Numbered from the stretch's first letter, positions 2,171 through 64,000 are shown. The stretch: DNA of 64,000 bases from Elusimicrobiota bacterium (GCA_003450815.1 DMES01000077.1:17681-81680); one strand, 5' to 3'. A program made the numbers and translations. Notes: generated by a model not told the origin, from the sequence alone.

Positions 2171-2602
2171 CTAAATTCCTTTCTGAGTTCCCGTGCTGCC
2201 AAATCCCCCCCCGCCTCTGCGGGAAGCTTCTAGTTCTTCTACCGCTTCAAAACCCTCATAGCGCACCGGCATTACCAGAAGCTGCGCCATTTTCTGGCCC
2301 TTTGCCAGATTTTTAGTTTCTTTCGTGAGATTGAAAAGGCAAACCAGCACTTCGCCTCTGTATCCTTCATCTACCAGTCCGGCGGTTACTATAAGCCCCT
2401 GCGACTCAAGCGAACTTTTGCCCCAGACTATGCCGGCCGTGCCTTCAGGCAAGGCTATGGCAAGCCCGGTTCTGGCTTTTACCGCTGTCTGCGGCGGTAT
2501 TTCCACCGGCTCAAGCGAAAATAGATCGGCGCCGGCGTCGGTAGGGTGCGCCCGCTCAGGCATCAGGGCCGATGTGTGCAACTTTTTTACTTTGACATTC
2601 AT
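2171..2602 (-). CDS. dut: dUTP diphosphatase
   Basis: dUTPase motifs AGADL, GLVDEGYRGEV and FGSTG; 143 aa. Confidence 0.9.
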   Translation of the reverse strand: MNVKVKKLHTSALMPERAHPTDAGADLFSLEPVEIPPQTAVKARTGLAIALPEGTAGIVWGKSSLESQGLIVTAGLVDEGYRGEVLVCLFNLTKETKNLAKGQKMAQLLVMPVRYEGFEAVEELEASRRGGGGFGSTGTQKGI

Positions 2603-2988
2603 TGAATTTCCTTAAGACGTCTTATTATAATCAATAGTATATAAATTTTACGTTTTATTTGCGTTCCTTAAATGCAAAGAGCGGGCCTGTTCCCAAAAGC
2701 TCACGTAAGGCGGAGTGCCCGTCGAGGCATTTTTCATTATTCTGGTGTAGCCCCTGCCGTCACCCCGGCGAAGCTTGCCCCGTACTGTGATACGGGGTCC
2801 GGGGTCCAGTGTCGTAGATATTACCGGATTCCGGCTTTTGCCGGAATGACGATGTGGGCGTATGTGAGCTTTTGGGTGACCTGTTGAAAAACCAAAATCT
2901 TAAAATTATCGGCCAGATTTGTTTAGCGATGCGTTATAAAAGATCCCCTGCGGTTTGTACCGCCTAAACGAGGCTGCCTGATTCTCTT

Positions 2989-3006
2989 GGTTAACATATG
3001 TTAACC
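2989..3006. promoter_or_regulatory. perfect 18-bp palindrome GGTTAACATATGTTAACC (candidate operator)
   Basis: Read directly. A near copy lies 98 bp downstream, next to the HTH gene start. Confidence 0.6.
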
Positions 3007-3090
3007 GTTATTTGCAGTGGCATTAAGGTGTTATAGGCGCCAAGAGCAATTGCCCGAAAATCTTTCTCCTGTTTGGCTGAAGGCATTCTG

Positions 3091-3099
3091 TGGTATAAT
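3091..3099 (+). promoter_or_regulatory. extended -10 promoter element TGGTATAAT
   Basis: TGnTATAAT lies 26 nt upstream of ATG 3125. The -35 is weak (TTGGCT). Confidence 0.5.
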
Positions 3100-3103
3100 T
3101 AAT

Positions 3104-3120
3104 GGTTAACATAGGTTAAC
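3104..3120. promoter_or_regulatory. second GGTTAAC half-site pair, GGTTAACATAGGTTAAC (candidate operator)
   Basis: Lies between the -10 element and the start codon of the HTH gene. It shares the GGTTAACATA..GTTAAC pattern with 2989-3006. Confidence 0.55.
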
Positions 3121-3124
3121 AAAT

Positions 3125-3394
3125 ATGGCAAAAGATTTTTTTTCACTACCGGAAGCGGCGGCAATGCTTGGGATATCCCGCATTGCGGTTTTTAAGAAAG
3201 TGCGCAAAAGCCAGATCGAGGCCATACGCATTGGCCGCAACTGGGCGATAGCGGCTTCAGTTTTGAATTCATATGGGAAAAACCCTCTTCCCCCCCCTGC
3301 CGCAGCCAAACGACCGCCAAAACACCACGAAACAAAAACCGACAATGTTTTTCTTCCGCCCGACAAAGAAATGGACGATATGGGTTGGGATTAA
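3125..3394 (+). CDS. excisionase/MerR-type helix-turn-helix DNA-binding protein
   Basis: LPEAAAMLGISRIAVFKKVRKSQIEAIRIGRNWAI matches the excisionase-family HTH pattern (recalled). The C-terminal half is Pro/Lys-rich and low in complexity. Confidence 0.7.
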   Translation: MAKDFFSLPEAAAMLGISRIAVFKKVRKSQIEAIRIGRNWAIAASVLNSYGKNPLPPPAAAKRPPKHHETKTDNVFLPPDKEMDDMGWD

Positions 3395-4095
3395 CCCCAA
3401 AACCTTGCCAACCCCCAAGCAGGCCAGGTTGAGTACAAACAAAATCAATTCTGGTTGATTTCCAAGAATTCGGTCACCCTGGCATTAGACTGCCATAAAA
3501 CCTATCCACTGGCTCCGACTAACAGATCGGCCATGATGAGGGCATATGCAGAACACAAACCCTCTTACATCCGTCACACAGTCTTTACATCCCAGCAGAT
3601 TAGAAGCGGGCAGGCTATGCGAACCCAATAATAACACATTGCCGCTCTCCTAACCAGAATTTGCGCTATTCTTTCTGTTTATAAATCAAAAGTGACTTAA
3701 AATCGCAGAGAAATTTGAGCGAAGAGAGATTTCCGCGCAGAATGCGATAAAGTTGCTGAAAGAAATGGATGGATATGAGAAAAGTAGCGGATAGCGGCGA
3801 GCGATTGGTTGCTACGTGTGTGTATGGGGGGGGGCGAATAGAACTCTTTTCCACAAACGCACCAGGTGTGCGCCAGTGTTGCAGCATAAAGAACGCCGTG
3901 AACATAGAAATAAGGAATCGATTGAAGCCGGTGAGATAGGTAAAATTGTGGACATAAACGACGGCAAGGGCATAGCTGACGTACATACAGAGCGTAGTTG
4001 CCGCAGCGAATTCGCCTGGATTAACAACAATTTGCCCCGCGCCTTATTGGCGGGGCGAATATATGTGGAAACATGGGCGTCTTTCATACGCCCAT

Positions 4096-14604: not shown

Positions 14605-14628
14605 TTTTATATAAAAAAAGCAAATATT

Positions 14629-14725
14629 CGGTAAACTCGTGTATCTTCACTGATAATCATCTTCCGGTGTGTAGTGGCAGAGTTTACTCTGCCCGCAGAA
14701 GAGGCAAAGCAAGCTTTGCTACTAC
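14629..14725 (+). repeat. structured repeat family, copy 1 (5' module CGTGTATCTTCACTGATAA + hairpin core GTAGTGGCA...GGCAAAGCAAGCTTTGCTACTAC)
   Basis: Aligns by eye with 60221-60346 (reverse) and with the core at 37303-37434. Confidence 0.75.
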
Positions 14726-14824
14726 AAAAGCAACTGACGAAATCACCAAATATTTACTAAAAAAATAAAACATAAAATTGCCTTCTACTGAGCTTTTCAG
14801 GCTAAAGGGTGAACTTAGGCAAAG

Positions 14825-14861: not shown

Positions 14862-17800
14862 ATGCCAAAGCATTCGGGGTCTGCAAAGTTTACAGCAACA
14901 GGGGTTTTCAACGGCCTGAAAAGTTTTAGCGAACTTGAGGCCAGGATTTCCGCTCTGCCCTCCGAAAAAGAGCGTGGGGACGCTTTTGAGGTTTTTGCGG
15001 AGGCTTACCTAGCCACACAGCCTATATGCCAGGCGAAGGAAGTTTGGCCCCAGACCAGTGCCCCAAGCGGGCTGTTAAAACGCCTTGGCCTGCCGGTTTC
15101 CCGCGACATGGGGACGGACGGGCTTGTTGTACTAAAAGACGGTCGCATTGCTTCATACCAGGCTAAATTCTATACCAGCCGCCCAAGCCTTACCTGGGGT
15201 TTGCTGTCAACCTTTTTTGCCATCTCCGACCGGGTTTCACACACCATAATTTTCACAAATTCCGACAGCCTTGCTTCTACTATAGAGCAGAGGCAGAACT
15301 TTATCGCTATTCGCGGGATTGATTTAGACCGGCTTGCCCCCACTGACTTTTCGGTGATTGAAGAATGGATGAAAGGTGAGCCGGTAGCCAGGGTAATCCC
15401 AAAGCCGCGCCCGCACCAGGAGAAGGCTTTAAATGAACTGCTGCCAGCTTTGAAATCCTCTGACCGGGCCACTGTAATAATGGCCTGCGGCACCGGCAAA
15501 ACTCTTTTATCCCTCTGGGCTGCTGAGCGGCTGAAAGCTAAAAACGTTCTGGTGTTAGTGCCATCGCTCGCACTTATACAGCAGACCCTACACGGCTGGC
15601 TGGCCGCTACGGGCTGGGACAACCTTGCTTACCTCTGCGTCTGCTCGGACCTAACAATAACGGATGGTGTGGACGAACTGGTCGTTAAAAAGTCCGACCT
15701 TGATTTTGAGGTTACAACCGCCCCTGCCGAGGTTAAACGCTTTCTTGACAGTGTATTTGATGGGGTTAAAGTGGTTTTCTCAACCTATATGTCTGCCAGC
15801 GTGGTCGGTAAGGCACTTGAGGGCCGAAACATCTTTGACTTGGGCATATTCGACGAGGCACATAAAACCGCTGGCCGCGAGGGCAAAACCTATGCGTTCG
15901 CCCTCTCTGATAAAAATCTCCCGCTAAAAAAACGCGTATTCATGACCGCCACCCCCAGGCATTACAATGTTTTAAAGCGGGACAAAGAAGGTGACGCGAA
16001 ACTGGTCTATTCCATGGACGTGCCGGAATCTTATGGTACCGTAGTCCATAAACTCCCCTTTGCTGAGGCGGCCCGCGCCGGAATTATCTGTCGTTACAAG
16101 GTAATAATTTCCGTAGTAACCTCCGAGATGGTCGGGCAGGAACTTTTAAGGCGGGGCAAAGTCCTTGTAGCGGGTGACGAAATTCACGCCCAGCAGGTGG
16201 CAAACCAGCTGGCACTCGCCGCCGCCGTGGAGAAGCACGGAGTCGGCAAAATAATCACCTTCCATAAAAACATCAAATCCGCGCAGTCCTTTACCGACGC
16301 CGGTCCGGAAGGCATAGCCAATCATCTAAAAGATTTCTCCGTCTTCCACGTAAACGGCTCAATGCCCTCCGCCGAACGCGAAAAGCTGATGGGAGAATTT
16401 AAAACCTCCAAGCACGGCCTTGTCTCCAACGCCAAATGTCTGACCGAAGGCGTAGACGTTCCGGCAGTGGATATGGTCGCCTTCCTAAGCCCCAAACGCA
16501 GCACGGTGGACATCGTACAGGCAACCGGCCGCGCCATGCGTAAAGCCCCCAAAAAAGAATTCGGTTACATCTTGGTTCCGCTCTATCTGGAAATTAAAAA
16601 TAATGAAGCCATAGAAGAAGCCGTCCGCCGAGGCAACTTTGAAGAAGTCTGGGACGTCCTAGCCGCCCTACAGGAACAGGACGAAGTCCTAGCCGACATA
16701 ATCCGCCAAATGCGTCAGGAAAAAGGCCGCACCAAAGGCTACAACGACGTCCCCTTCCGTGAACAAATAGAAATCCTCGGCCCACAAATTTTACTAGAAG
16801 ACTTAAAAAAATCAATCATAATCTCCTGTGTTGACAGGCTTGCCGCTAATTGGGACGAGCGCTTCGGAGAATTGGTCGCATATAAAGCCAAATATAGCGA
16901 TTGTAATGTGCCAAGGGGATGGCCTAAAAATCCGAGTTTGGCTAGATGGGTTGCAATGCAGCGAAGTCTTAAGATTAAAGGACGACTATTAAAGGAGCGA
17001 GTAAATCAGCTAACTGCGATTGGGTTTGACTGGGATCCGCAAGCGTCAGCTTGGGAAGATAGCTTTCGCGCCCTTGAGCAGTATAAGGCTAAACATGGTG
17101 ATTGCGATGTGCCAAATAGATGGATTGAAAATCCGAGTTTGGCTAGATGGGTTGGAATGCAGCGAAGTCTTAAGATTAAAGGACGACTATTAAAGGAGCG
17201 AGTAAATCAGCTAACTGCGATTGGGTTTAACTGGGATCCGCAAGCGTCAGCTTGGGAAGAAGGCTTTTGTGCCCTTGAGCAGTATAAAGCTAAACATGGT
17301 GATTGTAATGTTTCACATGCGTGGCCCCAAAATTTAGGTTTAGCCACGTGGGTTTCAACGCAGCGAACAGCCAAGATTAAGGAGCAATTATCCAAAGATA
17401 GAGAAAATCGTCTGACAAAGATTGGTTTTGAATGGAACAGGTTGGTGTCAGCCTGGGAAGAAAATTTTCATGCCCTCGAAGACTATCAAGGTACGTATGG
17501 CGATTGTAATGTACCAAAGATGTGGCCTGAGAATCCGAATTTGGCCACCTGGGTTGTAATGCAACGAAGTCTTAAAATTAAAGGGCAACTATCAAAGGAG
17601 CGAGTAAATCGGTTAACTGCGATTAAGTTTGATTGGGATCCGCTAGGGTCAGTTTGGGAAGAAAGTTTCCGCGTCCTTGAGCAGTATCAGGCTAAACATG
17701 GTGATTGCAATGTGTCACAGGAATGGCCTGAAAATCCAAGTTTGGGTAGGTGGGTTTCAAGACAACGAGAAGCCAAGATTAATGGGCAGCTATCAAAGGA

Positions 17801-18323
17801 GCGAGTAAATCGGTTAACTGCGCTTAGGTTTGACTGGGATCCGCAGGTGTCAACCTGGGAAAACAGTTTTTGCGCTCTTGAGAAGTATAAAAATAAACAT
17901 GGTGATTGCAATGTGCCACAGGGATGGACTGAACCTCCGGGTTTGGGTAGGTGGGTTTCGAATCAACGACGCTATAAGATTAAAGGGAAAATATCAAAGG
18001 AACGAGTAAATCGGCTAATCGCGATTGGATTTGACTGGGATCCGATGCTCTCGGCCTGGGAAAAAAGTTTTCGCGCCCTTGCACAGTATAAAGCTACACA
18101 TGGTGATTGCAATGTGCCACAGGATCGGCCTGAAGATCCGAGTTTGGGTAGATGGGTTGCAACGCAACGAAAAGTTAAGATTAAAGGGCAAATATCAAAG
18201 GAACGAGTAAGCCGGCTAACTGCGCTTGGGTTTGAATGGCATAGGACGAAGGAACGCCTGCCCCGCAACAGGAGTATAGGTGACAAAAACCAAGCAAAGC
18301 TGCTAAAAACGGATGAACATTAA
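14862..18323 (+). CDS. fusion protein: restriction-endonuclease-like N-terminus + SF2 (DEAH, Res-subunit-like) helicase + 7 helicase-associated (HA) repeats
   Basis: N-terminus GDAFEVFAEAYL..GTDGLV..YQAKF (PD-(D/E)xK-like). Helicase motifs MACGTGKT, DEAH, TATP and QATGRAMR. C-terminal 7 x 67-aa W(E)xxF..YK..HGDCNVP..W..NP.L..WV..QR repeats. Confidence 0.85.
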   Translation: MPKHSGSAKFTATGVFNGLKSFSELEARISALPSEKERGDAFEVFAEAYLATQPICQAKEVWPQTSAPSGLLKRLGLPVSRDMGTDGLVVLKDGRIASYQAKFYTSRPSLTWGLLSTFFAISDRVSHTIIFTNSDSLASTIEQRQNFIAIRGIDLDRLAPTDFSVIEEWMKGEPVARVIPKPRPHQEKALNELLPALKSSDRATVIMACGTGKTLLSLWAAERLKAKNVLVLVPSLALIQQTLHGWLAATGWDNLAYLCVCSDLTITDGVDELVVKKSDLDFEVTTAPAEVKRFLDSVFDGVKVVFSTYMSASVVGKALEGRNIFDLGIFDEAHKTAGREGKTYAFALSDKNLPLKKRVFMTATPRHYNVLKRDKEGDAKLVYSMDVPESYGTVVHKLPFAEAARAGIICRYKVIISVVTSEMVGQELLRRGKVLVAGDEIHAQQVANQLALAAAVEKHGVGKIITFHKNIKSAQSFTDAGPEGIANHLKDFSVFHVNGSMPSAEREKLMGEFKTSKHGLVSNAKCLTEGVDVPAVDMVAFLSPKRSTVDIVQATGRAMRKAPKKEFGYILVPLYLEIKNNEAIEEAVRRGNFEEVWDVLAALQEQDEVLADIIRQMRQEKGRTKGYNDVPFREQIEILGPQILLEDLKKSIIISCVDRLAANWDERFGELVAYKAKYSDCNVPRGWPKNPSLARWVAMQRSLKIKGRLLKERVNQLTAIGFDWDPQASAWEDSFRALEQYKAKHGDCDVPNRWIENPSLARWVGMQRSLKIKGRLLKERVNQLTAIGFNWDPQASAWEEGFCALEQYKAKHGDCNVSHAWPQNLGLATWVSTQRTAKIKEQLSKDRENRLTKIGFEWNRLVSAWEENFHALEDYQGTYGDCNVPKMWPENPNLATWVVMQRSLKIKGQLSKERVNRLTAIKFDWDPLGSVWEESFRVLEQYQAKHGDCNVSQEWPENPSLGRWVSRQREAKINGQLSKERVNRLTALRFDWDPQVSTWENSFCALEKYKNKHGDCNVPQGWTEPPGLGRWVSNQRRYKIKGKISKERVNRLIAIGFDWDPMLSAWEKSFRALAQYKATHGDCNVPQDRPEDPSLGRWVATQRKVKIKGQISKERVSRLTALGFEWHRTKERLPRNRSIGDKNQAKLLKTDEH
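16851..18257 (+). repeat. 7 tandem 201-nt coding repeats (HA domains)
   Basis: The conserved Trp codons are spaced exactly 201 nt apart. 16927-17059 vs 17128-17260 differ at only 2 of 133 nt. Confidence 0.9.
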
Positions 18324-19011
18324 AGAAGAAGAATTAGGACACTGGTGGGGAGAGTTTCTTGTTTCCTCACGTAGGTACGATATTTTAATTCGCAATTTAT
18401 ATGTTGCCGGGAAGAATAAACAGATAAATGAATTTGATGGGGTCGGGATTAAATTTCTAGGCGTAAAACTTGGAGACAATGTCTTATTAGAAGATATCGA
18501 ATATAAATATGCTAAAACAGGGAAAGAAGATCGGGCAGAGAAGGCGTTGGGAAAGCAAATAGAAAAAATAAAAATGTTTAGTGGGTTTAATTCAATAATC
18601 GGGGCATCAAATTCTGTACTTGCTGTTAAAGGATTACCACATTGTTTTGGTGCTCTTAAAGTGGGCGCCCCGAATGAAAACTGTTGTAGTGGTTTTTTTG
18701 TTAGAGAGCCTACTAAGTTTATATATAACTCAACACACCGTGATAATATCCTGAAGGTCACTCGGCAGGTTTATGGGACAGCTGAGGTTATAGGCATGCC
18801 ATGCGTATTTATTAAATGTAAAGATAAGAATTGTCGAACCTATTATGGGTTTTCAGCGAGAGTGCCACTCCCAATCTCATTTTATGAAAATGGACACTCG
18901 GAGTATTGTCCTGAGTCAAAAAGCAAAAGTAATAGGTATGTTTTTGTAAGCAAAGGATTCTCATACAATAACAGAACTTACTACACTGCGCGAGCAAATA
19001 AGTTTATTTAA
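18313..19011 (+). CDS. hypothetical protein (232 aa), start overlaps the helicase stop
   Basis: ATG 18313 lies 11 nt inside the end of the helicase ORF. AT-rich. No motif recognised; several Cys (CC, C..C). Confidence 0.6.
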   Translation: MNIKEEELGHWWGEFLVSSRRYDILIRNLYVAGKNKQINEFDGVGIKFLGVKLGDNVLLEDIEYKYAKTGKEDRAEKALGKQIEKIKMFSGFNSIIGASNSVLAVKGLPHCFGALKVGAPNENCCSGFFVREPTKFIYNSTHRDNILKVTRQVYGTAEVIGMPCVFIKCKDKNCRTYYGFSARVPLPISFYENGHSEYCPESKSKSNRYVFVSKGFSYNNRTYYTARANKFI

Positions 19012-19120
19012 GTGTGGCAAATCAGATGTCGGAACGGTTCTTAATGATTGTGTGGGGAGGCCCAGGCGACGTTGTTGAAAGATTGAAATTTTGTTTTAGA
19101 TCGTTTAAACTTTTGATGCT

Positions 19121-19618
19121 ATGAAATATCGTGATTTATCAAAAGAAGAGTTTGACGCTATTGTAACTGGAGAACTTACTCACCATGCGATATGGTTGGA
19201 AAGTGAACTGGTGGAAATTATTTCCAACTATTTTCTTGGTGACTCGTATAAAAAAGCGGATTTTAACAGATTGTTATTTAGGCGGGATGGTTTAACCTTT
19301 CAGGATAAAATTGAAATAGTTAGGGGAATGCTCCCGCTATTTAAAAAGTCTGCTGTTGTTGAGCATCTTAAAAAGTTACTACTTAAGATTGAGGAGTTGA
19401 AAGATTTTCGTAATGCATTTGCGCACGGAATTGATGCTCAATCGGATAAAAACGACAAGCTTTGTTTAAAAATTGAACTTATTAGTCGGTCTGGTAAAAC
19501 TAAGACCATAGAGGTTACTCCGGAAACTCATGAAAAACACATGGAAAGCCTTGATAAGCTTTTTAATGAGGTTCACCAGGTTTGCCTTGAACTTAAACAT
19601 ATGGGGGGAGGGGCTTAA
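19121..19618 (+). CDS. hypothetical protein with Rx4H motif (candidate HEPN-like)
   Basis: FRNAFAHG = R-N-x3-H, in a residue composition compatible with an all-helical 165-aa protein (not predicted). The assignment rests on this motif alone. Confidence 0.5.
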   Translation: MKYRDLSKEEFDAIVTGELTHHAIWLESELVEIISNYFLGDSYKKADFNRLLFRRDGLTFQDKIEIVRGMLPLFKKSAVVEHLKKLLLKIEELKDFRNAFAHGIDAQSDKNDKLCLKIELISRSGKTKTIEVTPETHEKHMESLDKLFNEVHQVCLELKHMGGGA

Positions 19619-19636
19619 ATTTTGGCGTTTTCAACG

Positions 19637-19669
19637 TGACAGACGGTTGTCGCTTTGGTCTGCTATACT
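19637..19669 (+). promoter_or_regulatory. palindrome TGACAGACGGTTGTCG + N11 + TATACT (copy 2)
   Basis: About 85 nt upstream of dinD. Confidence 0.65.
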
Positions 19670-19752
19670 GTTTTCAAAGCAAAAAACGGCGGGAGCTTTT
19701 ACATTATGACGGTTCTTGAGGTCGGCTTGGAGAAAAACGGAGGGAAGAAATC

Positions 19753-20613
19753 ATGGCCAAGGAAATAGCGAAAACAACCGGCTGGCATATATCGCCTTTT
19801 GAGTGGATCAAACGCACAAATGAAGCGAATAATGAATATTGGGAGAGCCGCGACCTGGCGGAGATTTTGGAATACACGCAATACCGGAACTTCGAGGCTG
19901 TAATCCAGAAGGCTAAGCTGGCGTGTTTCAATAGCGGGCATCGTATTGAGGATCATTTTGCTGATGTCAGCAAAATGATCGAGATTGGGAAAGGCGGCAG
20001 GCGCGAGATCGATGTCATATTGTTATCTCGATACGCCTGTTACCTGGTTATTCAAAACGCCGATCCCAAAAAAGAAATAGTGGCGCAGGGTCAAACCTAC
20101 TTTGCCGTCCAGACACGGCGGCAAGAAATTGCGGACGAACATATTGAGGAAAATCGACGCCTGATATTGCGCGACGAAATACGTCACCACAACGCGCAAC
20201 TGGCCGATGCGGCCAAGGGCGCGGGCGTCATCGAACCCATAGACTACGCTATCTTTCAAAATCATGGGTATATGGGGCTTTATGGCGGGTTGAAACAGGA
20301 AGACATTCACCGTCGTAAAGGCTTGAAAGAAAGCCAAAAGATTTTGGACCACATGGGCAGCACGGAACTGGCGGCGAACCTGTTTCGCGCAACTCAGGCG
20401 GAGGAGAAGCTGCGCCGGGACGAGGTCAAGGGGAAAGACGCCGCGAACCGGACACATCGTGAGGTCGGCGCGAAGGTGCGGCAGACCATCAAGGAGTTGG
20501 GTGGCACGATGCCCGAAGAATTACCGGTGGCGGAAAGCATCAAAAGAATTGAGTCCGAACAGCGCAAACAACTCGGCAAGGCTGAGCCGCCCGCAAAACA
20601 GAAGGACGAGTAA
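19753..20613 (+). CDS. dinD: DNA-damage-inducible protein D family
   Basis: Extended similarity to remembered E. coli DinD: FE.IKR.NE...E.W.ARDLA..L.Y...RNF..VI.KA..AC.NSGH...DHF......I..G.G..RE.....LSRYACYL..QN.DP.K...A..QTYFAVQTR. Confidence 0.85.
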   Translation: MAKEIAKTTGWHISPFEWIKRTNEANNEYWESRDLAEILEYTQYRNFEAVIQKAKLACFNSGHRIEDHFADVSKMIEIGKGGRREIDVILLSRYACYLVIQNADPKKEIVAQGQTYFAVQTRRQEIADEHIEENRRLILRDEIRHHNAQLADAAKGAGVIEPIDYAIFQNHGYMGLYGGLKQEDIHRRKGLKESQKILDHMGSTELAANLFRATQAEEKLRRDEVKGKDAANRTHREVGAKVRQTIKELGGTMPEELPVAESIKRIESEQRKQLGKAEPPAKQKDE

Positions 20614-20656
20614 AGGGTGGGGGAAAAGCAGGAGCCTTTTAAAAACCGTTTTTTAA

Positions 20657-20688
20657 CGACAAGACGCTGTCGGGATGGTGTGTATACT
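20657..20688 (+). promoter_or_regulatory. palindrome CGACAAGACGCTGTCG + N10 + TATACT (copy 3)
   Basis: One nucleotide different from copy 1. 55 nt upstream of the Bro-N gene. Confidence 0.65.
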
Positions 20689-20742
20689 ATTTTCAGGTGT
20701 TAAGAATTAATAGCAGGAAATACCGCTTTTTGGGAGGTACTT

Positions 20743-21585
20743 ATGGATAAATCTCTGGCTGTTTTTGAGGGGAATAGAATACGCAGGCATTACGACGAAA
20801 AGACGGAAAACTGGTATTTCTCCGTGGTGGATATATTGCAGGTGTTGATTCAACAGCCGTATTACCAGGCGGCCAGAAATTACTGGAAGGTCTTGAAAAA
20901 CAGGTTGAATAAGGAAGGGAGTGAGTCGGTTACAAAATGTAACCGACTGAAATTGCAAGCGGCAGACGGCAAATACTATTTAACAGATGTCGCAAATCCT
21001 GAAACGCTGTTTCGCCTTATACAATCCGTGCCAAGTCCAAAGGCTGAACCGATAAAACTCTGGCTGGCGAAAGTGGGACATGAGCGCTTGCAGGACATGG
21101 CGGATCCCGCAAAGTCGCTGGACAGGGCCCGCCAGTACTGGCAGCAGCACGGCAGGAGCCAGAAATGGATCCAACAGCGCATGATGGGGCAGGAAACCCG
21201 GAACAAACTGACCGACTACTGGAAAAACCACGAAATTAAAAAAGAAGAAGAATACGCGATATTAACCAACATTATCCATCAGGAATGGTCTGATATAACG
21301 GTAAAGGAACACAAAAACATTAAAGGTTTAAAGACCCAGAACCTGCGCGACCACATGAGCGAAGCGGAACTGATTTTTACCGCTTTGGCCGAGCTATCCA
21401 CCCGCCAGATAGCCGAAACCATGTCGGCCACCGGCATGGCTGAAAATACCATCGCCGGAAAAAAAGGCGGCGGCATTGCCAAAAAAGCGCGGCTGGACCT
21501 GGAAGAAAAAACCGGGAAAAAAGTGGTGAGCGGGAATAATTATTTGCCGCCCAAGAACAATAAACAAATAGAAAAGAAACAATGA
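20743..21585 (+). CDS. Bro-N domain protein (phage antirepressor-like N-terminus)
   Basis: LAVFEGNRIRRHYDEKTENWYFSVVDILQVL fits the Bro-N pattern (recalled). Confidence 0.7.
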   Translation: MDKSLAVFEGNRIRRHYDEKTENWYFSVVDILQVLIQQPYYQAARNYWKVLKNRLNKEGSESVTKCNRLKLQAADGKYYLTDVANPETLFRLIQSVPSPKAEPIKLWLAKVGHERLQDMADPAKSLDRARQYWQQHGRSQKWIQQRMMGQETRNKLTDYWKNHEIKKEEEYAILTNIIHQEWSDITVKEHKNIKGLKTQNLRDHMSEAELIFTALAELSTRQIAETMSATGMAENTIAGKKGGGIAKKARLDLEEKTGKKVVSGNNYLPPKNNKQIEKKQ

Positions 21586-26218: not shown

Positions 26219-26381
26219 CATGCCCGTGGCTCTGGCCTGTCGTTGGCTTATGCCGCTGTCCACAACTATGACGCATGGTGGCATATGGTTATTAAGCGGC
26301 CAGGCAGAATTTTAATTCCGACAACCCATGGGATGAAAAGGACGCCGCAGTTTTGAATGTATTATCATCAAGGAATTGAAC

Positions 26382-37302: not shown

Positions 37303-37434
37303 GTAGTCGCAGAGCTTGCTCTGCCCAAAAAATCCAGCTGCAGGGATCTGCCATGCTGTTTGGCGGACACTCTGCCGGACAGGCCTATCTATGCGTTCCG
37401 CACGCAAATTAGGCAAAGCAAGCTTTGCGACTAC
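37303..37434 (+). repeat. structured repeat family, copy 2 (core only, longer insert)
   Basis: GTAGTCGCAGAGCTTGCTCTGCCC ... GGCAAAGCAAGCTTTGCGACTAC. The outer stem carries a C-G where the other copies have G-C or G-T. Confidence 0.75.
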
Positions 37435-37507
37435 ATACAGCTGGAAAACTGAATAAGCACTATGTCGCATAATTAGTTTGTTACGATATTATTAGCTTTT
37501 TTATACT

Positions 37508-57288: not shown

Positions 57289-58536
57289 ATGAAAAGAGTA
57301 TTAGCAGCGATTGCTTTGCTGGGGGGGCTTTCTCTATCGGCAAGCTCGGCGTTTGCCTGGGATTATTTTTACACCGGAGCCCAACACGGGAATGTTTTTG
57401 GAACATACAAGGTTAATGTAAATCTTGATGACTACCTTCCCTTACAGTCCGGCGGCTCGGCCAAGGCCATGGGCATGGGCGGCGCTTATACCGCTATTGC
57501 CAGCGATCTGGGCGCGGTGGAATATAACCCAGCCGGTCTGGCCCGTATCAGCCATGTTAATGTTTCAGCGCTGGCCACTGCCAATCGCACAACAACGATA
57601 GGCGCGCAGGGAGAAAAAACCTCCAGTTGGAAAATAATCCCCACTTATGCCGGCGCGGCCCTGAAAATAGGACCGATAGCTGTCGGTCTCAGCAAAGAAG
57701 TTCCGCAGTCAAAAAGCACATATATCAAGTTTGCTTCAACTCAGCGCAATATCCGTGCGCCGGACGGCTGGGTTATGTCCTATGACACTTTGAGCGATAA
57801 AATGGACACTAGCGCCCTTGATACTTATGTCCTTACCGGCGCCATTAAACTGGGGCGGTTATCTGTCGGCGCTAACTATAATTCTATTAATGGTGAGATT
57901 AAGCGCGAATTCAGCGGCAGGGTCACCACTCCCCAGAGATATTACTGGTGGAATACCGGCGGCGTTATGAACAATCAGTTCCAAGCTACCAACACCGTGG
58001 GGCTTAAAGGATATACAATAGATGTCGGCGCTTTGATTGATATGGGTATAATCCGCTTGGGTGCCACCGCCAAAAACTTCAAGGGCAAAGTGGATGTGAC
58101 GCAGAAGATGCACTGGAAAGACAACTTTGATATGGGCAGCAACAACTTCTTCGTGTGGAACCCCGCCCAGACCAAGAACACCATGACCGAGTTCGCGCCT
58201 ACCTATTCAGCCGGCGCGGCTCTTCTTCTAGGGAAATTCATCACGGTTGACCTGGACTATGTCACCATAAACCTGCAGGATTCCAATAAAGCCCTTGGCC
58301 GACTTGGAGCCGAGGTCGCTGTTATCCCCGGATTCCTGTTCGCGCGCGGCGGCGTGAAATCCGACTTCAAGAGCGTTGTTCAGGGTCAGAACAACAAGAC
58401 CAATGAATACTTCCTCGGCGCTGGGCTCAAACTGGTTGCCCTGACCGTGGACGCTTCCGCCTCGCTCACGCAGGCGCAGGCCGGCTCAAGCGGCGGCGAT
58501 ATGACCGGCGCAGTTAGCGCCTCATTGAAGTTCTAA
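57289..58536 (+). CDS. outer-membrane beta-barrel protein (PorV/FadL-like N-terminal motif)
   Basis: Signal peptide ending SAFA. GMGGAYTAIASDLGAVEYNPAGLA motif. C-terminal SLKF. Confidence 0.55.
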   Translation: MKRVLAAIALLGGLSLSASSAFAWDYFYTGAQHGNVFGTYKVNVNLDDYLPLQSGGSAKAMGMGGAYTAIASDLGAVEYNPAGLARISHVNVSALATANRTTTIGAQGEKTSSWKIIPTYAGAALKIGPIAVGLSKEVPQSKSTYIKFASTQRNIRAPDGWVMSYDTLSDKMDTSALDTYVLTGAIKLGRLSVGANYNSINGEIKREFSGRVTTPQRYYWWNTGGVMNNQFQATNTVGLKGYTIDVGALIDMGIIRLGATAKNFKGKVDVTQKMHWKDNFDMGSNNFFVWNPAQTKNTMTEFAPTYSAGAALLLGKFITVDLDYVTINLQDSNKALGRLGAEVAVIPGFLFARGGVKSDFKSVVQGQNNKTNEYFLGAGLKLVALTVDASASLTQAQAGSSGGDMTGAVSASLKF

Positions 58537-59353: not shown

Positions 59354-60178
59354 ATGAAAATAATTAATCGCTGCATAAAATATGACCGTGCCGCCATTAT
59401 GGCAACAACTTCGGGATTCATACTTAACCCGCAATCCCTTGATTACCTGCTGAAGCATGTGGAAAGCCACCCCATACCGCAATTCACCAAATTTAGAAAA
59501 AAACTTCTGTCTCTCTTGAAGCATAAATCCCGTCCGGCCACTGATTCGAAAAAGCTAACCAGGATACTTTCTGCGCTGCCAACCCTAAAAAAAGACCCGG
59601 AATTGGGTATAGCTGCGATTTCAAAACTGACAGAGCTTCTCAGTCTACACATCATACCCGCTCAAAACAAAAAAATCCGCATTAAATGCGAAGATTACTA
59701 CAAGTGCTGTGTACTCCAGTGTCTTATCCTTAAAGCGTTGATCTCAGTTATGCCACGCAAAAAAGCTATCGAGTATTTCGGAAAATTCATAACAAAGCAT
59801 AACTCTACTTTTAAACTTATGAAACTTAAATATGTCGTGGAAAAGCTTAATCTCCATGTCTCCGTAAAAAAGGGGCCGCTTAAGAACGGGGCGGTTTTCC
59901 TCCAGGCAGTGACTGGAGACGGTCGCGCAGTAATGAAAATTACCCGCTGCCGTCCGGCCGAGGTAGTGTTGAAAGAGGTGAAGGATCCGCAGATAGTGCA
60001 TGCGGTTATTTGCCAACCGGATTTTGCTATGACAAAATTAAGTAACCCCGCCTTTGAACTAACCCGTGAGAAATCCCTTGTCCTCGGTATGCCCTATTGC
60101 GGTCATGTTTGGCATGACCGGCGCCTTCACAAGGCAATAAAACACCCATCGCACAAATTCTGGCAAGAATTGAACTGA
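59354..60178 (+). CDS. hypothetical protein (C-terminal Cys pattern reminiscent of the ATC-hydrolase family)
   Basis: AT-rich 274-aa ORF. The C..(DP)..C..D....L.R..SL..G...C pattern is recalled only, not searched. Confidence 0.45.
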   Translation: MKIINRCIKYDRAAIMATTSGFILNPQSLDYLLKHVESHPIPQFTKFRKKLLSLLKHKSRPATDSKKLTRILSALPTLKKDPELGIAAISKLTELLSLHIIPAQNKKIRIKCEDYYKCCVLQCLILKALISVMPRKKAIEYFGKFITKHNSTFKLMKLKYVVEKLNLHVSVKKGPLKNGAVFLQAVTGDGRAVMKITRCRPAEVVLKEVKDPQIVHAVICQPDFAMTKLSNPAFELTREKSLVLGMPYCGHVWHDRRLHKAIKHPSHKFWQELN

Positions 60179-60220
60179 CCAGATGTATCTTACTTAATTC
60201 TACAGCCGCATTTTGCTCCT

Positions 60221-60346
60221 GTAGTGGCAAAGCTTGCTTTGCCCTTTTACGCAGTCGCGGACAGCGCCAGAGGCCCGCGACAGGCCAGTGTCACTGCCAC
60301 TACGCACCGAACGAGGGTTATCAGTGAAAGATACACGGGTTCACCG
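60221..60346 (-). repeat. structured repeat family, copy 3 (inverted relative to copy 1)
   Basis: The reverse complement reads CGGTGAACCCGTGTATCTTTCACTGATAACC..GTAGTGGCAG...GGGCAAAGCAAGCTTTGCCACTAC. Confidence 0.75.
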
Positions 60347-60530
60347 GCTATTTACGGAAAATCGCCTTTAAAAGCGATTACAGGGACAAAGTACCCATGA
60401 GTGAATGGGTCCAAATACCCTGGATACCGCAGGCCCTGCCGGATATACTATATTCACAATCCTACTGTAATTTGGCGGATTTTTCAGGCGCCAAAGTATC
60501 TACGACCCGGCCTTAACCGGGTGTATCCAG

Positions 60531-60563
60531 GGGAAGCGGAATCAAAAACGCTTTCCCTTTTTT
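60531..60563 (+). terminator. intrinsic terminator-like hairpin
   Basis: GGGAAGCG..CGCTTTCCC followed by TTTTTT. Confidence 0.55.
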
Positions 60564-60616
60564 GTTTGAAAAGCAGTTCTCAAAATGGCAGAATATAAAT
60601 ATATTAGGAGAGTAAC

Positions 60617-60823
60617 ATGAAACTCAATGACAAAGTGTTGGTGTTTTTTTTGGTTTCGGTGGGTATTTTTTCTGCAACACAAGCAAAGCAGTATATAGCA
60701 TCCTTGTCAACAAAGGGGAAGAACACTATTTTGTCGGTTGCCAAAAAGGCTAATTCTCAACATATTTTGTTATGCAGTGGAGTGACGAATTTATCCGCCG
60801 CTGATACTGGAGAAGGTGGATAG
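60617..60823 (+). CDS. small secreted/hydrophobic-N-terminus peptide (68 aa)
   Basis: AGGAGA 6 nt upstream. N-terminus VLVFFLVSVGIFSATQA. The C-terminal 45 aa are Ser/Thr/Lys-rich with a single Cys and end in GEGG. Confidence 0.6.
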   Translation: MKLNDKVLVFFLVSVGIFSATQAKQYIASLSTKGKNTILSVAKKANSQHILLCSGVTNLSAADTGEGG

Positions 60824-61020
60824 TCAGTGCTACGGTCTTCTTTTATTGTGCCGCCTCCATCAACAGATTCCCATCAGGTGATAAAAGCAGTTCGTTGAAA
60901 GGATGCCAGGTTTTCTTGTAGTCCTAAAGCAGTCCCCGGCTCCCGTCGGGAACGTTCCGGTTGTGGGGGCAGTTGCAACTATTTCCTATCAGCGCAATAA
61001 CAGGGCGCTTTTCTTAAACG

Positions 61021-61878
61021 GTGGCAAATAAAATAACCGAGTTGGGCGTTTTGGTAGGATATGCGTGCAATTTTGCATGTGCGCATTGTATCACAGCGCG
61101 AGAAAAGAGAGAAAAACTCACTTCCGCAGAGATCAGACTGCTAATTTCCCAAATAAACAAACATACGGTTAAATCGCTACTGTTTGTCGGTGGCGAAACC
61201 AGTCTATATGTACGAGACATTAACACTATCTTGTTAGGCATACGCAAATTGGATGCGACTAAGGTAAAAATTACCACGAACGGGCATTTCGCGATTACCA
61301 AAACGGCTGCAAAAGAAAAGATATTGTCTTTTCACAGACTAAACTCGGTACAACTTTCTTATGATAAGTTTCATGCGGAATTTCTGCCGTTTCGAAATGT
61401 GAGGAATCTTTATGCCGCATGCAAGGATTTGGGATTAGAATTTAGCGTAATTCTGACCATCGAATCCCCACTGGATATTGTATATGCCAAAAGATTATGG
61501 GGTGTAGGAAAATTCCCCATAGGAATACAAAAGGTATTGCAGATCGGAAAAGCTGTCTCAAATAAGAACGCGTATGTTTTTCCTAGTTTTGATAAAAAGG
61601 TTTTAAAAAGATCCTGCCCGAATCTCAATAGAATTAAGTATCTTCCAGGCCAAGGGTTCAGTATATGCTGCTCGTTGCTTGCTTATAAACATGCTGACAA
61701 CTTCACGCACACTTCTCTTTCTAAACACTTGCGCAGCAGGTTTTATGGACTTGTTTCCAAGTATTCATTCGGCGAAATTGCTCACCTATTAAACATTAAT
61801 GTCAAAAATCTAGAACCACGTTATTCGCACGAATGTAATTTGTGCGAGTATATTTTTAAGAAAGGGCGGCAATCATGA
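61021..61878 (+). CDS. radical SAM enzyme with C-terminal SPASM/twitch-like Cys motifs
   Basis: CNFACAHC (CX3CX2C) at residues 16-23. C-terminal CPNLNRIKYLPGQGFSICC and CNLC. GTG start. Confidence 0.7.
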   Translation: MANKITELGVLVGYACNFACAHCITAREKREKLTSAEIRLLISQINKHTVKSLLFVGGETSLYVRDINTILLGIRKLDATKVKITTNGHFAITKTAAKEKILSFHRLNSVQLSYDKFHAEFLPFRNVRNLYAACKDLGLEFSVILTIESPLDIVYAKRLWGVGKFPIGIQKVLQIGKAVSNKNAYVFPSFDKKVLKRSCPNLNRIKYLPGQGFSICCSLLAYKHADNFTHTSLSKHLRSRFYGLVSKYSFGEIAHLLNINVKNLEPRYSHECNLCEYIFKKGRQS

Positions 61879-62564
61879 AAATGCGTCTTATTCGCAAAAC
61901 CAATAGTCGGGCGGTTTATAAGTTAAAAGATTTCCGAAAAATCAACAACAAGTTTTTCCGGGAAATCCCGTGGCCTGACAATCTTCGCGGCATGATTTTT
62001 TCTTTTGAAAAAAAGATAAAAGACGAACAAAAGGTTATCAAGGCTATTTCCAGTAAATATTGGGTCTCAGTTGGGTATTCAGTAGAAAGCCGTAAACTCG
62101 TAAACTGCGGAAATATGCTCCCTAACCACATAAGACCGTCAAAACCAACTAATACTGAATTACATAAACTGTTTTGCAAAACCCAGAGCATGTTTTACAA
62201 GACCTGGCGTAATAATCTGGGCCCCGCTTATCTAAAAGAAGTCCGCATGGTAGCTGACAATATGCTGAATTCAGCGAAGGTTACATGCCTGAAAAAAAAT
62301 GGGAAGGCCGTAGGATTGCTGATTGTTGTAAAATGGAAGAATCATATGGATATCCCCGTTAACTGGGTGGTTTGGGTGTGGATCGACAGAAACCTCCCAG
62401 TTGAGGAGAGAACAGCAGTAAGAGATTATTTTACCGGATGGATGAAAAAGCATATACGTGGGTGTATCCAATGTGTGATTAATTCGTTTAATATAAAATC
62501 TCACAGGTTTTTTAAAAAAATGGGGTTTTTCCCGGAATGTGTACATTATATTCGCACAAAATAA
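61875..62564 (+). CDS. hypothetical protein with GNAT-like C-terminal half
   Basis: ATGA overlap with the radical SAM gene. C-terminal ..NIKSHRFFKKMGFFP resembles the GNAT alpha4 motif. Confidence 0.45.
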   Translation: MKMRLIRKTNSRAVYKLKDFRKINNKFFREIPWPDNLRGMIFSFEKKIKDEQKVIKAISSKYWVSVGYSVESRKLVNCGNMLPNHIRPSKPTNTELHKLFCKTQSMFYKTWRNNLGPAYLKEVRMVADNMLNSAKVTCLKKNGKAVGLLIVVKWKNHMDIPVNWVVWVWIDRNLPVEERTAVRDYFTGWMKKHIRGCIQCVINSFNIKSHRFFKKMGFFPECVHYIRTK

Positions 62565-63943
62565 ACAGGTCCTTGCTTGCGCTTTTTTTGTTTTTTGTTT
62601 GTTTGGGTTATTCCCATGCAAATCAGTGGGGGGTTATGGCTACAGGCTTGCCAGACCAGGTAACAACAAAACAAGCACGCGGCAATGTATCTTATTACAT
62701 TTTAAAGCAAACACATGAACCGATTCTCCGCAGAGATGACGGGCAAAATTACACCTCACGCATTCTTAGCGGGTGGAGTAGAAGTGTGGATTATACGCGG
62801 TACACTTTATGCCCGGATACTTCATTGCGTTTTAGCAGCAATATCCCATTTTCAATAGAAGTCTTTAGACGCCATCTCGATGTTATTACGAAGCAATTTG
62901 ACCCTATCTTTTCTTTAAAACAAGAAGACAAGTGTTTTATCATTAAGTTTGAAAAGACACGAAAAAGCTATGCCGACTTTCTTACACTATATGAAAATGC
63001 TCCCACACAAAAAGAGTCGGACAAAGTGGAGAGCGGTTTGGGCCCGTTCTTTGTAAAAACAATTAGCGCTGAAAAAATAGCTCTGTCTCGTAAAAAACCC
63101 TTGCGAAATGCGTACAATGAAATCGTGTTGTATGAATACCACGGGACATCAGATCCCAACCTTGCCAATCGAAACATAAAAGATTTCAATCTCATCCCTG
63201 ATTTTGATGTTCCCAAATGGGTCCCCTTGGAATATGTGGGTTTTAGAAATGTAGAGCTTAAAAGCGTGGCATTAATAATCAATCACCCTGACCCGGATAT
63301 CCGCAAAACGATATATAACTGCGCAGATGTTCAAACATTGCGCAAAGCATATTTCCCGCAAAAAAGCGGTTATTATAATATCCAGAATATTCTTCCTATT
63401 GGTATCGCCGAGGCAAAAGCCGGATTACCGGCTCAAACATGTCAGAAAAGATCCACGCCACCATCCGTTAAAACACCGATTGTCCTCGCTAATTGGATGC
63501 ATGGGAATAGTGAGGGACTGAATAAGTTTACACGGCAGTTTAATCTCAAAACAAACCTTCGATTGAAAGTGGTTGATTTTAGCCCACATGAGCTTGTAAA
63601 AGTTTTTAATAAAAAACCTCGCCCATACAATCTTTTAGTGCTTGTGTTCGATGCTGTGCGTGCCGATCCAAATGCTTTTTTTGACTCTTTTGCGAAAAGT
63701 GATGGTTTTCATGACTTTGAAATACCTGTAATAAAGAAATTGTATACAGAATTGAATCGAGAAGATAATGACGGGAAAAGAAAAGTCATAGCCGCACGCA
63801 TTGCAAATGAAATTTTAGATCAGAGCCTGGCCTTACCTCTTTATCAAAGTTTAAGAACCCTTTACTATCCTAAAGAGATTAAAAATCTTACCGTGGGAAC
63901 AGGCTTTCTTGAATATCCAGAAGTGGGGGATCTCAAATGGTGA
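62537..63943 (+). CDS. ABC transporter substrate-binding protein, family 5 (peptide/nickel/opine type)
   Basis: Signal-like LLALFLFFVCLGYSHA. YYILKQTHEPILRRDDGQNYTSRILSGWSRSVDYTRYTLCPDTSLRF fits the family 5 N-terminal pattern (recalled). Confidence 0.65.
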   Translation: MCTLYSHKINRSLLALFLFFVCLGYSHANQWGVMATGLPDQVTTKQARGNVSYYILKQTHEPILRRDDGQNYTSRILSGWSRSVDYTRYTLCPDTSLRFSSNIPFSIEVFRRHLDVITKQFDPIFSLKQEDKCFIIKFEKTRKSYADFLTLYENAPTQKESDKVESGLGPFFVKTISAEKIALSRKKPLRNAYNEIVLYEYHGTSDPNLANRNIKDFNLIPDFDVPKWVPLEYVGFRNVELKSVALIINHPDPDIRKTIYNCADVQTLRKAYFPQKSGYYNIQNILPIGIAEAKAGLPAQTCQKRSTPPSVKTPIVLANWMHGNSEGLNKFTRQFNLKTNLRLKVVDFSPHELVKVFNKKPRPYNLLVLVFDAVRADPNAFFDSFAKSDGFHDFEIPVIKKLYTELNREDNDGKRKVIAARIANEILDQSLALPLYQSLRTLYYPKEIKNLTVGTGFLEYPEVGDLKW

Positions 63944-64000
63944 AACTATTCAGCAGGATACTGGCGTATAACTGGAAATATTACGTTTTAGCGGTGGTAG
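63937..64000 (+). CDS. start of a probable ABC permease (truncated by window end)
   Basis: The ATG overlaps the SBP stop. MVKLFSRILAYNWKYYVLAVV is hydrophobic. Confidence 0.4.
   Translation, partial: MVKLFSRILAYNWKYYVLAVV

Follow-up and report, generated by a model that had tools for sequence, protein, structure and literature searches.

At the 3' end of a 64,000-nucleotide stretch of DNA from an Elusimicrobiota bacterium (GCA_003450815.1 DMES01000077.1:17681-81680; this whole stretch is called the window below) lies a cassette in which a riboswitch of the rare 2'-deoxyguanosine-II (2'-dG-II) type precedes genes for a small precursor-like peptide, a radical S-adenosylmethionine (SAM) enzyme, a GNAT-fold protein, a substrate-binding-like protein and a sensor histidine kinase. 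We propose, with a probability of roughly 0.55, that the cassette is a single operon running past the end of the window, and that it specifies a riboswitch-licensed, modified and exported peptide that is sensed by its own binding-protein/kinase pair. The gene content of the cassette, the homologies of its products, the identity and architecture of its riboswitch and its conservation across loci are direct observations. The features that matter for the argument are, from 5' to 3':

60421 to 60449, plus strand: putative sigma-70-like promoter, TGGATA-17-TATACT, from a consensus scan; conserved in homologous leaders
60460 to 60535, plus strand: aptamer of a 2'-dG-II-type purine-clan riboswitch with a P1-P3 three-way junction (Rfam RF03165)
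60530 to 60563, plus strand: expression platform, an intrinsic terminator sharing the 3' strand of P1 (from folds)
60583 to 60597, plus strand: conserved 15-mer AAATGGCAGAATATA between terminator and start codon (from a pattern search of the loci)
60617 to 60823, plus strand: open reading frame (ORF) of the 68-residue precursor-like small protein, whose variable C-terminal core is ILLCSGVTNLSAADTGEGG
61021 to 61878, plus strand: ORF of the 285-residue YydG/EpeE-like radical SAM enzyme (TIGR04078 and PDB 8ai1 matches)
61875 to 62564, plus strand: 229-residue putative accessory enzyme of the GNAT superfamily, tandem-GNAT-like (AlphaFold2 model and Foldseek)
62537 to 63943, plus strand: 468-residue periplasmic, divergent family-5 (NikA/OppA-type) substrate-binding-like protein (family profile against PDB)
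63937 to 64000, plus strand: first 21 codons of a 741-residue sensor histidine kinase, the remainder of which lies on the parent contig

The four complete ORFs stand where an initial annotation, made from the sequence alone, had placed them, and the gene overlaps that it reported are real: 4 nt (ATGA, 61875-61878), 28 nt (62537-62564) and 7 nt (63937-63943).

A conserved cassette of distinct base composition

Related loci were collected by a genome scan (44 loci) and a metagenome scan (80 loci kept), together with gene neighbourhoods. The cassette recurs in about 60 distinct loci, and most of the complete ones have the same order: small ORF, radical SAM enzyme, a variable slot, a protein of about 470 residues and a histidine kinase. 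Elusimicrobiota metagenome-assembled genomes account for about 35 of the genome loci, and Bdellovibrionota/Oligoflexia (among them Halobacteriovorax marinus) or 'Deltaproteobacteria' for a few; in several genomes there are two or three divergent copies. The core order of peptide, radical SAM enzyme, binding protein and kinase is also found in Bdellovibrionota-type loci and in loci with a fused enzyme (see below).

The shift towards AT-richness that had been noticed by eye is borne out by the computed GC content: about 0.46-0.56 across most of the window, 0.46 between 59 and 61 kb, and 0.39-0.40 between 61 and 64 kb. The same holds elsewhere: in most of 25 loci examined, the block from the radical SAM gene to the binding-protein gene lies 5-15 GC points below its flanks, while the GC content of the kinase gene is host-like (for the window's contig the values are 0.396, 0.499 and 0.521). 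AT-richness is thus a property of the cassette module, and a low-GC block beside a host-like kinase gene is consistent with fast diversification or exchange of a specificity module. In the closest relative (locus L001), the cassette sits within a RiPP-rich island (L001 1-7142; RiPP, ribosomally synthesised and post-translationally modified peptide), which also contains another 68-residue ORF, a 415-residue radical SAM protein, an MFS transporter and a canonical GNAT, with a 454-residue radical SAM protein, three ORFs of 35-41 residues and an ABC ATPase lying further upstream.

A 2'-dG-II-type riboswitch heads the operon

The element at the head of the operon had been overlooked in the initial annotation. 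The aptamer matches RF03165 over model positions 1-71 of 71 with 61.7 bits (gathering score 60, E ~1e-15), and scores 84 bits with a covariance model of our own, built from five aptamer copies, which gave 54 matches in 877 kb of related loci, all of them on the coding strand. Taken alone, the window aptamer folds into a three-way junction of -25.6 kcal/mol, a stability equal to that of a consensus copy. Pairing in P2 and P3 is 99% in an alignment of 33 distinct sequences, and compensatory changes occur at 8 of the 21 pairs of the whole structure, 7 of them among the 13 pairs of P2/P3; covariation is 0.266 against 0.113 in shuffles, none of 500 shuffles being as high. The signatures of the class are U22, C51, C74/78, a 2-nt insertion in J3/1 and a junction-proximal G-C pair in P1, with C51 being the first-shell nucleotide of the 'UCC' signature, by which a nucleoside is selected in preference to a nucleobase (PMC6847200). 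All of them except C51 are present in the window copy: U occupies column 9 and C column 69, J3/1 is GUAUC (5 nt), and G8 forms a pair with C70.

Of 57 distinct loci for which 480 nt or more of upstream sequence was available, 37 carry the aptamer, at 345-561 nt before the start of the radical SAM gene; no other Rfam family was found in the loci that lack it. Conversely, within 0.88 Mb of related loci, 42 of 43 distinct aptamer matches have a peptide ORF of the cassette family no more than 420 nt downstream. The exception is L031, in which an ISL3-type transposase (2303-3524) has come to lie between riboswitch/terminator and peptide gene, uncoupling the two. In both L031 and L028 a gene of the 229-residue type is found upstream of the riboswitch.

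The terminator that had been taken to mark the left edge of the locus is a real hairpin (~60530-60563), but it is the expression platform of the riboswitch rather than a boundary terminator. Its stem pairs 60530-60538 with 60549-60557 and is followed by six U at 60558-60563; a simple scan for terminators had missed it because the loop has 10 nt. In the folds, the 5' arm of the stem takes in six nucleotides that also belong to the 3' strand of P1, an arrangement that recurs in 44 of 44 distinct platforms and that makes P1 and terminator mutually exclusive. Stabilisation of P1 by ligand should therefore block termination, which is the architecture of an ON switch; binding of 2'-dG and switching of transcription would be expected of a member of the class. 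The putative promoter at 60421-60449, just 5' of the aptamer, would be the start of the riboswitch-controlled transcript.

Downstream of the platform, each of 35 loci contains the 15-mer AARTGGYARAATATA exactly once, in every case between terminator and peptide start codon, and the pattern of the 15-mer is found once in the window. It overlaps a second promoter-like site of the extended -10 type (TTGAAA-17-TGg-CAGAAT, 60566-60594), and might be a bypass promoter, a feedback promoter or a regulator site. Since sigma-54 regulators neighbour many of the loci, we also looked 5' of the peptide gene for sigma-54 promoters (TGG-N9-TGC and looser forms); none was found apart from one irrelevant site in L007.

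The small protein resembles a RiPP precursor

The 68-residue ORF has the good ribosome-binding site ascribed to it, an AGGAGAG Shine-Dalgarno sequence at 60606-60612, and its product has the expected hydrophobic N-terminus (segment at residues 7-21). This signal-like segment ends in TQA and is followed by a conserved leader, YIASLS..K..ILSVAK. The product has no significant match in Pfam. A set of 53 distinct homologues share the pattern M..KDK.IAAFLVS.G.FS..QA.QYV..LS...K..L followed by a tail of 20-25 residues, the mean column entropy being 1.62 bits in the N-terminal part and 3.01 bits in the C-terminal part. The tails contain cysteine in 36 of the 53 peptides, typically within an aliphatic (I/V)(L/V)(L/V)C(S/E)G motif; the remainder are Cys-less and often Pro-rich. 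In four loci (L038, L040, L041 and L043) the core has two cysteines in a conserved AG(D/E)AC...GSCDE motif, a subclass that suggests a different cross-link or a disulfide. The peptide gene adjoins the radical SAM gene in nearly all loci, so that the check on co-occurrence proposed earlier comes out in favour of this ORF. Taken together, a conserved leader, a hypervariable core and a gene beside that of a modifying enzyme are what would be expected of a RiPP precursor.

A 42-residue ORF at 60903-61031 had been named as an alternative precursor. We reject it: it is not conserved, and in other loci the spacer between peptide and radical SAM genes has 6-140 nt. The spacer in the window (197 nt) has no signal of a structured attenuator (z = 0.27).

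The first 15 residues of the peptide are strongly hydrophobic and end in a small-residue -3/-1 pattern (xQA), which together make the N-terminus signal-peptide-like. Remote relatives carry a separate, classical Sec or lipoprotein signal, after which comes the homologous region in an amphipathic form. Export of the peptide is therefore predicted throughout the family. The same hydrophobic segment could instead anchor an uncleaved protein in the membrane, where it would modulate the kinase in the manner of MgrB or SafA, with the radical SAM enzyme tuning it, and would not be released as a signal. The lack of a dedicated exporter or leader peptidase in the window's cassette fits such a protein, and a riboswitch that sets the amount of a modulator would be a simple, cell-autonomous relay. 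Nevertheless, the -3/-1 pattern after the hydrophobic segment is conserved, the distant homologues place a separate signal peptide before the amphipathic version, and the existence of a dedicated binding protein, soluble or lipoprotein, points to a ligand that is soluble, so we regard an anchored modulator as quite unlikely.

The radical SAM enzyme belongs to a sister family of YydG/EpeE

The assignment of the 285-residue protein as a radical SAM enzyme holds (PF04055, E=2.8e-8), as do its CNFACAHC motif and conserved C-terminal cysteine motifs. Its GTG start at 61021 is supported by the N-termini of homologues, whereas the database gene call begins at 61051. The best NCBIfam match is TIGR04078, the YydG peptide epimerase, with 56.5 bits against a cutoff of 300, and the only sequence matches in PDB are YydG structures (8ai1, E=8e-10 with the single sequence). 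The homologues form a family of proteins of about 285 residues, and the family profile aligns with YydG (8ai1) over the full length (E=5.8e-24), while the next-best profile matches, to MoaA, viperins and SPASM maturases, are restricted to the N-terminal radical SAM core. The enzyme thus clusters with a peptide-modifying family. Nine cysteines are invariant in the family: C16, C20 and C23, which form the CxxxCxxC motif (C16-x3-C20-x2-C23), C134, C199, C216, C217, C272 and C275. In the alignment to YydG, C199 falls on HCPG, C216-C217 on PCCS and C272/C275 on CGVC, which are motifs of the twitch domain. The hydrogen-atom donor of YydG is Cys223 (PMC13012085), a residue that we place in the PCCS doublet via the offset of the N-terminal tag of the chain. 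By this comparison the enzyme is best described as a member of a distinct sister family of YydG/EpeE, not an equivalog, and its reaction is probably the L-to-D epimerisation of peptide residues. The family is small: out of 1.84 billion proteins, an exhaustive profile search returned 131 representatives at E<=1e-30, and there are about 110 clusters at 50% identity.

Resemblance of the N-terminal core to the nucleotide-modifying enzymes MoaA, viperin and QueE, in an operon controlled by a guanine-nucleoside riboswitch, raises the question as to whether the substrate is a nucleoside or other small molecule related to the riboswitch ligand, with the small ORF being incidental. This is very unlikely. 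The matches to MoaA, viperin and QueE cover the generic radical SAM core only, whereas the match to YydG runs from end to end and includes the H-donor cysteine; the small ORF is conserved with its leader/core pattern in about 60 loci; and peptidases occur in the accessory slot.

A GNAT-fold protein in a variable accessory slot

The 229-residue protein had been called GNAT-like, and this is supported at the level of the fold. An AlphaFold2 model (pLDDT 87.3, pTM 0.83), confident though built from a shallow alignment (single-sequence and profile searches for homologues gave 4 and 11 proteins), has Foldseek matches with E ~1e-8, probability 1.0 and TM-scores of ~0.5 to GNAT or tandem-GNAT folds, among them 3frm, VipF, MshD, FemX, NMT and PamZ. 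VipF, MshD, FemX, NMT and PamZ are tandem-GNAT enzymes acting on peptides or amines. At the sequence level the match to Pfam Acetyltransf_1 is 13.5 bits, under the cutoff of 20.7, and in the family alignment the canonical acyl-CoA pyrophosphate motif (Q/R-x-x-G-x-G/A) is not visible after the WVWI strand. Proteins of about 500 residues in which the radical SAM domain is fused to a domain of the 229-residue type (hhalign probability 98.65%, E=4.8e-16) sit in the same context of small ORF, binding protein and kinase.

Elsewhere the slot is empty or holds a Transglut_core+TPR protein or a beta-lactamase-fold protein; the best match of the latter is to D-aminopeptidase, a D-stereospecific family (157 bits against a cutoff of 443 bits). 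Two loci have a TldD/PmbA pair between the binding-protein and kinase genes. By their homologies, the accessory enzymes outside the window's locus (Transglut_core+TPR, D-aminopeptidase-like, TldD/PmbA) are all predicted to be peptide-processing, and the D-aminopeptidase-like gene of some loci is an indirect hint of an epimerised product. Cysteine-containing cores are found at 23 of 27 GNAT-type loci and at 3 of 10 loci without an accessory gene (Fisher p = 0.003, uncorrected and ignoring kinship), a suggestive link between the GNAT gene and the core cysteine.

The binding protein is coupled to a sensor kinase

By itself the 468-residue protein matches nothing in Pfam or NCBIfam. The earlier call of a family-5 binding protein is supported at the profile level: a profile built from 40 homologues aligns in two segments with proteins of the NikA/OppA type (E=3.4e-7), and PF00496 is faint or weak in the homologues. 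The N-termini of these binding-protein-like products are of the signal or lipobox type. At nearly every locus the gene overlaps or abuts the kinase gene.

What follows had been taken for the start of a permease at 63937. The parent contig (L009, a 199-kb groundwater metagenome contig) shows it to be the first transmembrane segment of a 741-residue sensor kinase with HisKA and HATPase_c (gene at L009 12887-15112). Pfam recognises HATPase_c (4.8e-22) and, just below its cutoff of 26.9 bits, HisKA (7e-5, 23.2 bits). The layout is a first transmembrane segment, a periplasmic loop of about 110 residues, a second transmembrane segment, HisKA, HATPase_c and two REC-like C-terminal repeats. These repeats (residues ~500-741 in kinases of 707-741 residues), which start ...VVILDDDE... 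and ...VLLDDDA..., are not detected by Pfam and look like degenerate receiver domains; kinase versions of about 560 residues lack them. The kinase gene is followed by serine-pathway genes on the other strand.

The initial annotation had inferred an importer-type transporter from this region, that is, production of a RiPP or small molecule together with ABC-type uptake for recycling or import. The relation of the 468-residue protein to importer binding proteins of the NikA/OppA type is the point in favour of such a model. With the contig extended, however, the next gene turns out to encode a histidine kinase, the cassette and the parent contig to a distance of 10 kb contain no gene for an ABC permease or ATPase, and no BPD_transp or ABC_tran gene follows the binding protein at any locus examined. 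Translational coupling of the binding protein to a histidine kinase at nearly every locus argues for sensing rather than import, and uptake is effectively excluded. A practical lesson is that a 'family-5 binding protein' beside a hydrophobic N-terminus is not necessarily part of an importer. Of the 'RiPP-like production and uptake locus', then, the first half survives, with a YydG-like enzyme and a conserved small ORF, and the second does not, there being a kinase and no permease; nor did we see a non-peptide affiliation of the radical SAM enzyme, a lack of conservation of the small ORF or an unsupported GC shift, any of which would have spoken against it.

About a dozen loci have a sigma-54-dependent response regulator alongside, often with a short protein that has only Sigma54_DBD. 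In L003 (46-2726), L011 (14457-16855), L013 (4847-7434) and others, the regulator is accompanied by a co-directional ORF of 57-63 residues and a divergently encoded Sigma54_DBD-only protein of 346-356 residues, which may be a dedicated sigma-54-like factor. Neither the sigma-54 regulator nor the Sigma54_DBD-only protein is found near the cassette on the window's contig.

Homology to YydG also brings up an antimicrobial epipeptide, a YydF-like membrane-active toxin made when the riboswitch opens, with binding protein and kinase detecting the toxin or envelope damage and inducing immunity. Hydrophobic aliphatic core motifs would suit a toxin, and several divergent cassettes per genome with hypervariable cores are typical of bacteriocins. 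YydF itself induces a cell-envelope stress response (PMC7026026), the parallel being the triggering of LiaRS by YydF* in Bacillus. On the other hand, the cassette has no immunity ABC transporter or exporter, a membrane-active character is not seen in many of the cores, which are polar, acidic or Pro-rich, and the strict 1:1 pairing of binding protein and kinase with each peptide/radical SAM pair, even in remote lineages, is a better fit to a ligand and its receptor than to a sensor of general damage. We consider a toxin unlikely.

The proposed circuit and the evidence against it

In the circuit that we favour, transcription would start near 60450 and enter the riboswitch. Without ligand the terminator would form; with ligand P1 would form, the terminator would be blocked and the operon would be read. 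The ligand would be a guanine nucleoside or, for the U51 copy of the window (see below), possibly a different or more weakly bound guanine compound. The 68-residue product would be the precursor, with its signal-like N-terminus, conserved leader and hypervariable core. While still in the cytoplasm, the core would be modified by the YydG-like enzyme, the likeliest reaction being L-to-D epimerisation of aliphatic residues near ILLC, and the GNAT-fold protein may add or enable a second, Cys-linked modification. The peptide would then be exported, probably through Sec, and bound in the periplasm by the dedicated family-5-like binding protein, which would activate the adjoining kinase with its two transmembrane segments; in many related loci the kinase would signal to the neighbouring sigma-54-type response regulator. 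Here we infer the chemistry, the export route and the pairing of ligand with receptor from sequence.

A number of observations weigh against this circuit, the first group of which concerns the riboswitch. The margin of the window aptamer over the RF03165 threshold is narrow, relatives at the same position scoring 82-85 bits. It has U51 (J2/3 = GUAUCUACG) where 31 of 33 distinct relatives have C, and a 5-nt insertion in L2 that is unique to it; the sole other U51 copy, in L023, does not give a junction fold. In env1, C51U makes 2'-dG binding 18-fold weaker (PMC6847200, Table 2), and the reverse change, U51C, made in the guanine riboswitch xpt shifts preference from guanine to 2'-dG. L001, the closest cassette relative (69% radical SAM identity), keeps only a remnant of the aptamer. 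U51, the enlarged L2 and the loss in L001 together suggest a sub-lineage that is either shifting its ligand specificity or losing riboswitch control. In addition, transcription could escape the riboswitch by way of the conserved promoter-like element that lies downstream of the terminator.

A second group concerns the peptide and its fate. The radical SAM enzyme lies far below the YydG equivalog cutoff (56.5 vs 300 bits), and a protease and ABC exporter of the yydHIJ type are absent from cassette and flanks. The accessory enzymes lack signal peptides, and removal of the leader in the cytoplasm would be hard to square with Sec export via the same N-terminus. A mature peptide of about 45 residues would not be expected to pass outer-membrane porins, which makes cell-to-cell signalling uncertain. 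Finally, no response regulator was found near the cassette on the window's own contig. Even so, the circuit is the best-supported reading, the evidence favouring its rivals less.

We would go further only tentatively. It is possible that the cassette represents a new signalling circuit in which a guanine-nucleoside riboswitch, reporting on DNA breakdown or nucleosides, licenses a radical SAM-modified peptide, probably containing D-amino acids, which is exported and read by its own binding protein and kinase; the modules would diversify and be exchanged among Elusimicrobiota, and the U51 aptamer would be a natural specificity-switch variant, possibly preferring guanine.

Relation to known systems

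The closest known arrangement is yydFGHIJ of B. subtilis, in which a small precursor gene (YydF, EpeX) likewise lies directly upstream of the radical SAM gene (YydG/EpeE). The enzymes share homology over the full length, the CxxxCxxC motif, an extended twitch (T-SPASM) domain and the CC doublet on PCCS, and the cores of both systems are rich in Val, Ile and Leu. However, identity is only ~25%, and there is no YydH membrane protease or YydIJ ABC transporter; the cassette instead has a GNAT-fold or peptidase enzyme, a binding protein and a histidine kinase. Diderm hosts (Elusimicrobiota, Bdellovibrionota), a signal-peptide-like leader and riboswitch control are further differences.

In anaerobic sulfatase maturation, a cytoplasmic radical SAM enzyme acts on a signal-peptide-bearing substrate before Sec export; here, a small dedicated peptide would take the place of the enzyme as substrate. 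TldD/E carries out leader processing of microcin B17, and TldD/PmbA is a RiPP peptidase; some cassettes resemble the microcin B17 system in having TldD/PmbA pairs, unlike the cassette of the window. LuxP-LuxQ and TorT-TorS are binding-protein-dependent sensor kinases, and here too the gene of a periplasmic binding protein stands beside that of its presumed target, a kinase with two transmembrane segments and a small periplasmic domain. The differences lie in the type of binding protein, family-5 (peptide/nickel), and in the proposed ligand, a co-encoded modified peptide. Staphylococcal agrBDCA and streptococcal comCDE are peptide pheromone loci with hypervariable specificity modules. The cassette is like them in co-encoding precursor, processing enzyme and receptor, in its hypervariable core and several divergent versions, and in specificity genes that differ in composition or rate from a more conserved kinase. 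It is unlike them in its radical SAM and GNAT chemistry, in a receptor split into binding protein and kinase, in its Gram-negative hosts, and in being gated by a riboswitch and not (or not only) by autoinduction.

As for the riboswitch, the three-way-junction purine fold, U22, C74/78, enlarged J3/1, G-C pair in P1 and transcription-terminator platform are shared with the 2'-dG-II class (env1 structure, PMC6847200). The window copy differs in having U51 in place of C51 and a 5-nt L2 insertion, and the class is tied here to a peptide/radical SAM/kinase operon in Elusimicrobiota. The published description of the class drew on 12 metagenomic reads, none with an assigned host (PMC5473149), and a secondary source summarises its regulon as 'phosphate transport' (PMC12342879). 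In the searchable literature, no paper joins the 2'-dG-II term with radical SAM, none combines Elusimicrobia, radical SAM and riboswitch, and none describes a YydG-like enzyme with a histidine kinase or substrate-binding protein. Within that literature, the link between riboswitch, peptide, radical SAM enzyme, binding protein and kinase is new.

Other features of the window

The 'repeat copy 3' that had been given as a further mark of the left edge belongs to a dispersed intergenic repeat specific to this genome, with copies at 60213-60353, 14622-14733 (minus strand), ~37303-37435 and 26226-26267 (83-96% identity over pieces of 24-60 nt). With copies near 14.6, 26.2 and 37.3 kb and none at any homologous locus, we reject it as a component of the system. 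Directly 5' of the operon, in a moderately AT-rich zone, a 274-residue ATC_hydrolase-like protein is encoded (59354-60178) that is not linked to the cassette elsewhere. It is preceded by the gene of a 415-residue PorV/BamG-like outer-membrane beta-barrel (57289-58536), which indicates a diderm host. A second AT-rich stretch at 14862-21585 (GC 0.41 at 18-20 kb, with strong positive GC skew of 0.16-0.26 at 17-21 kb) encodes a 1153-residue protein with Mrr-like nuclease, ResIII, Helicase_C and seven HA helicase-associated repeats, followed by two Bro-N proteins, and looks like a defence or mobile-element island.

Implications

The 2'-dG-II riboswitches are structurally well studied and biologically an orphan class. 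Their link to Elusimicrobiota and to a defined operon makes a physiological role testable and, if the proposed circuit is true, gives the class a host phylum and a main regulon. The radical SAM enzymes constitute a sister family of YydG/EpeE in diderm bacteria that comes with a ready substrate family and with interchangeable tailoring enzymes (GNAT-fold, transglutaminase-like, D-aminopeptidase-like and TldD/PmbA). Finally, a RiPP with its receptor in the same operon would be a rare self-contained ligand-receptor pair for uncultured Gram-negative phyla.

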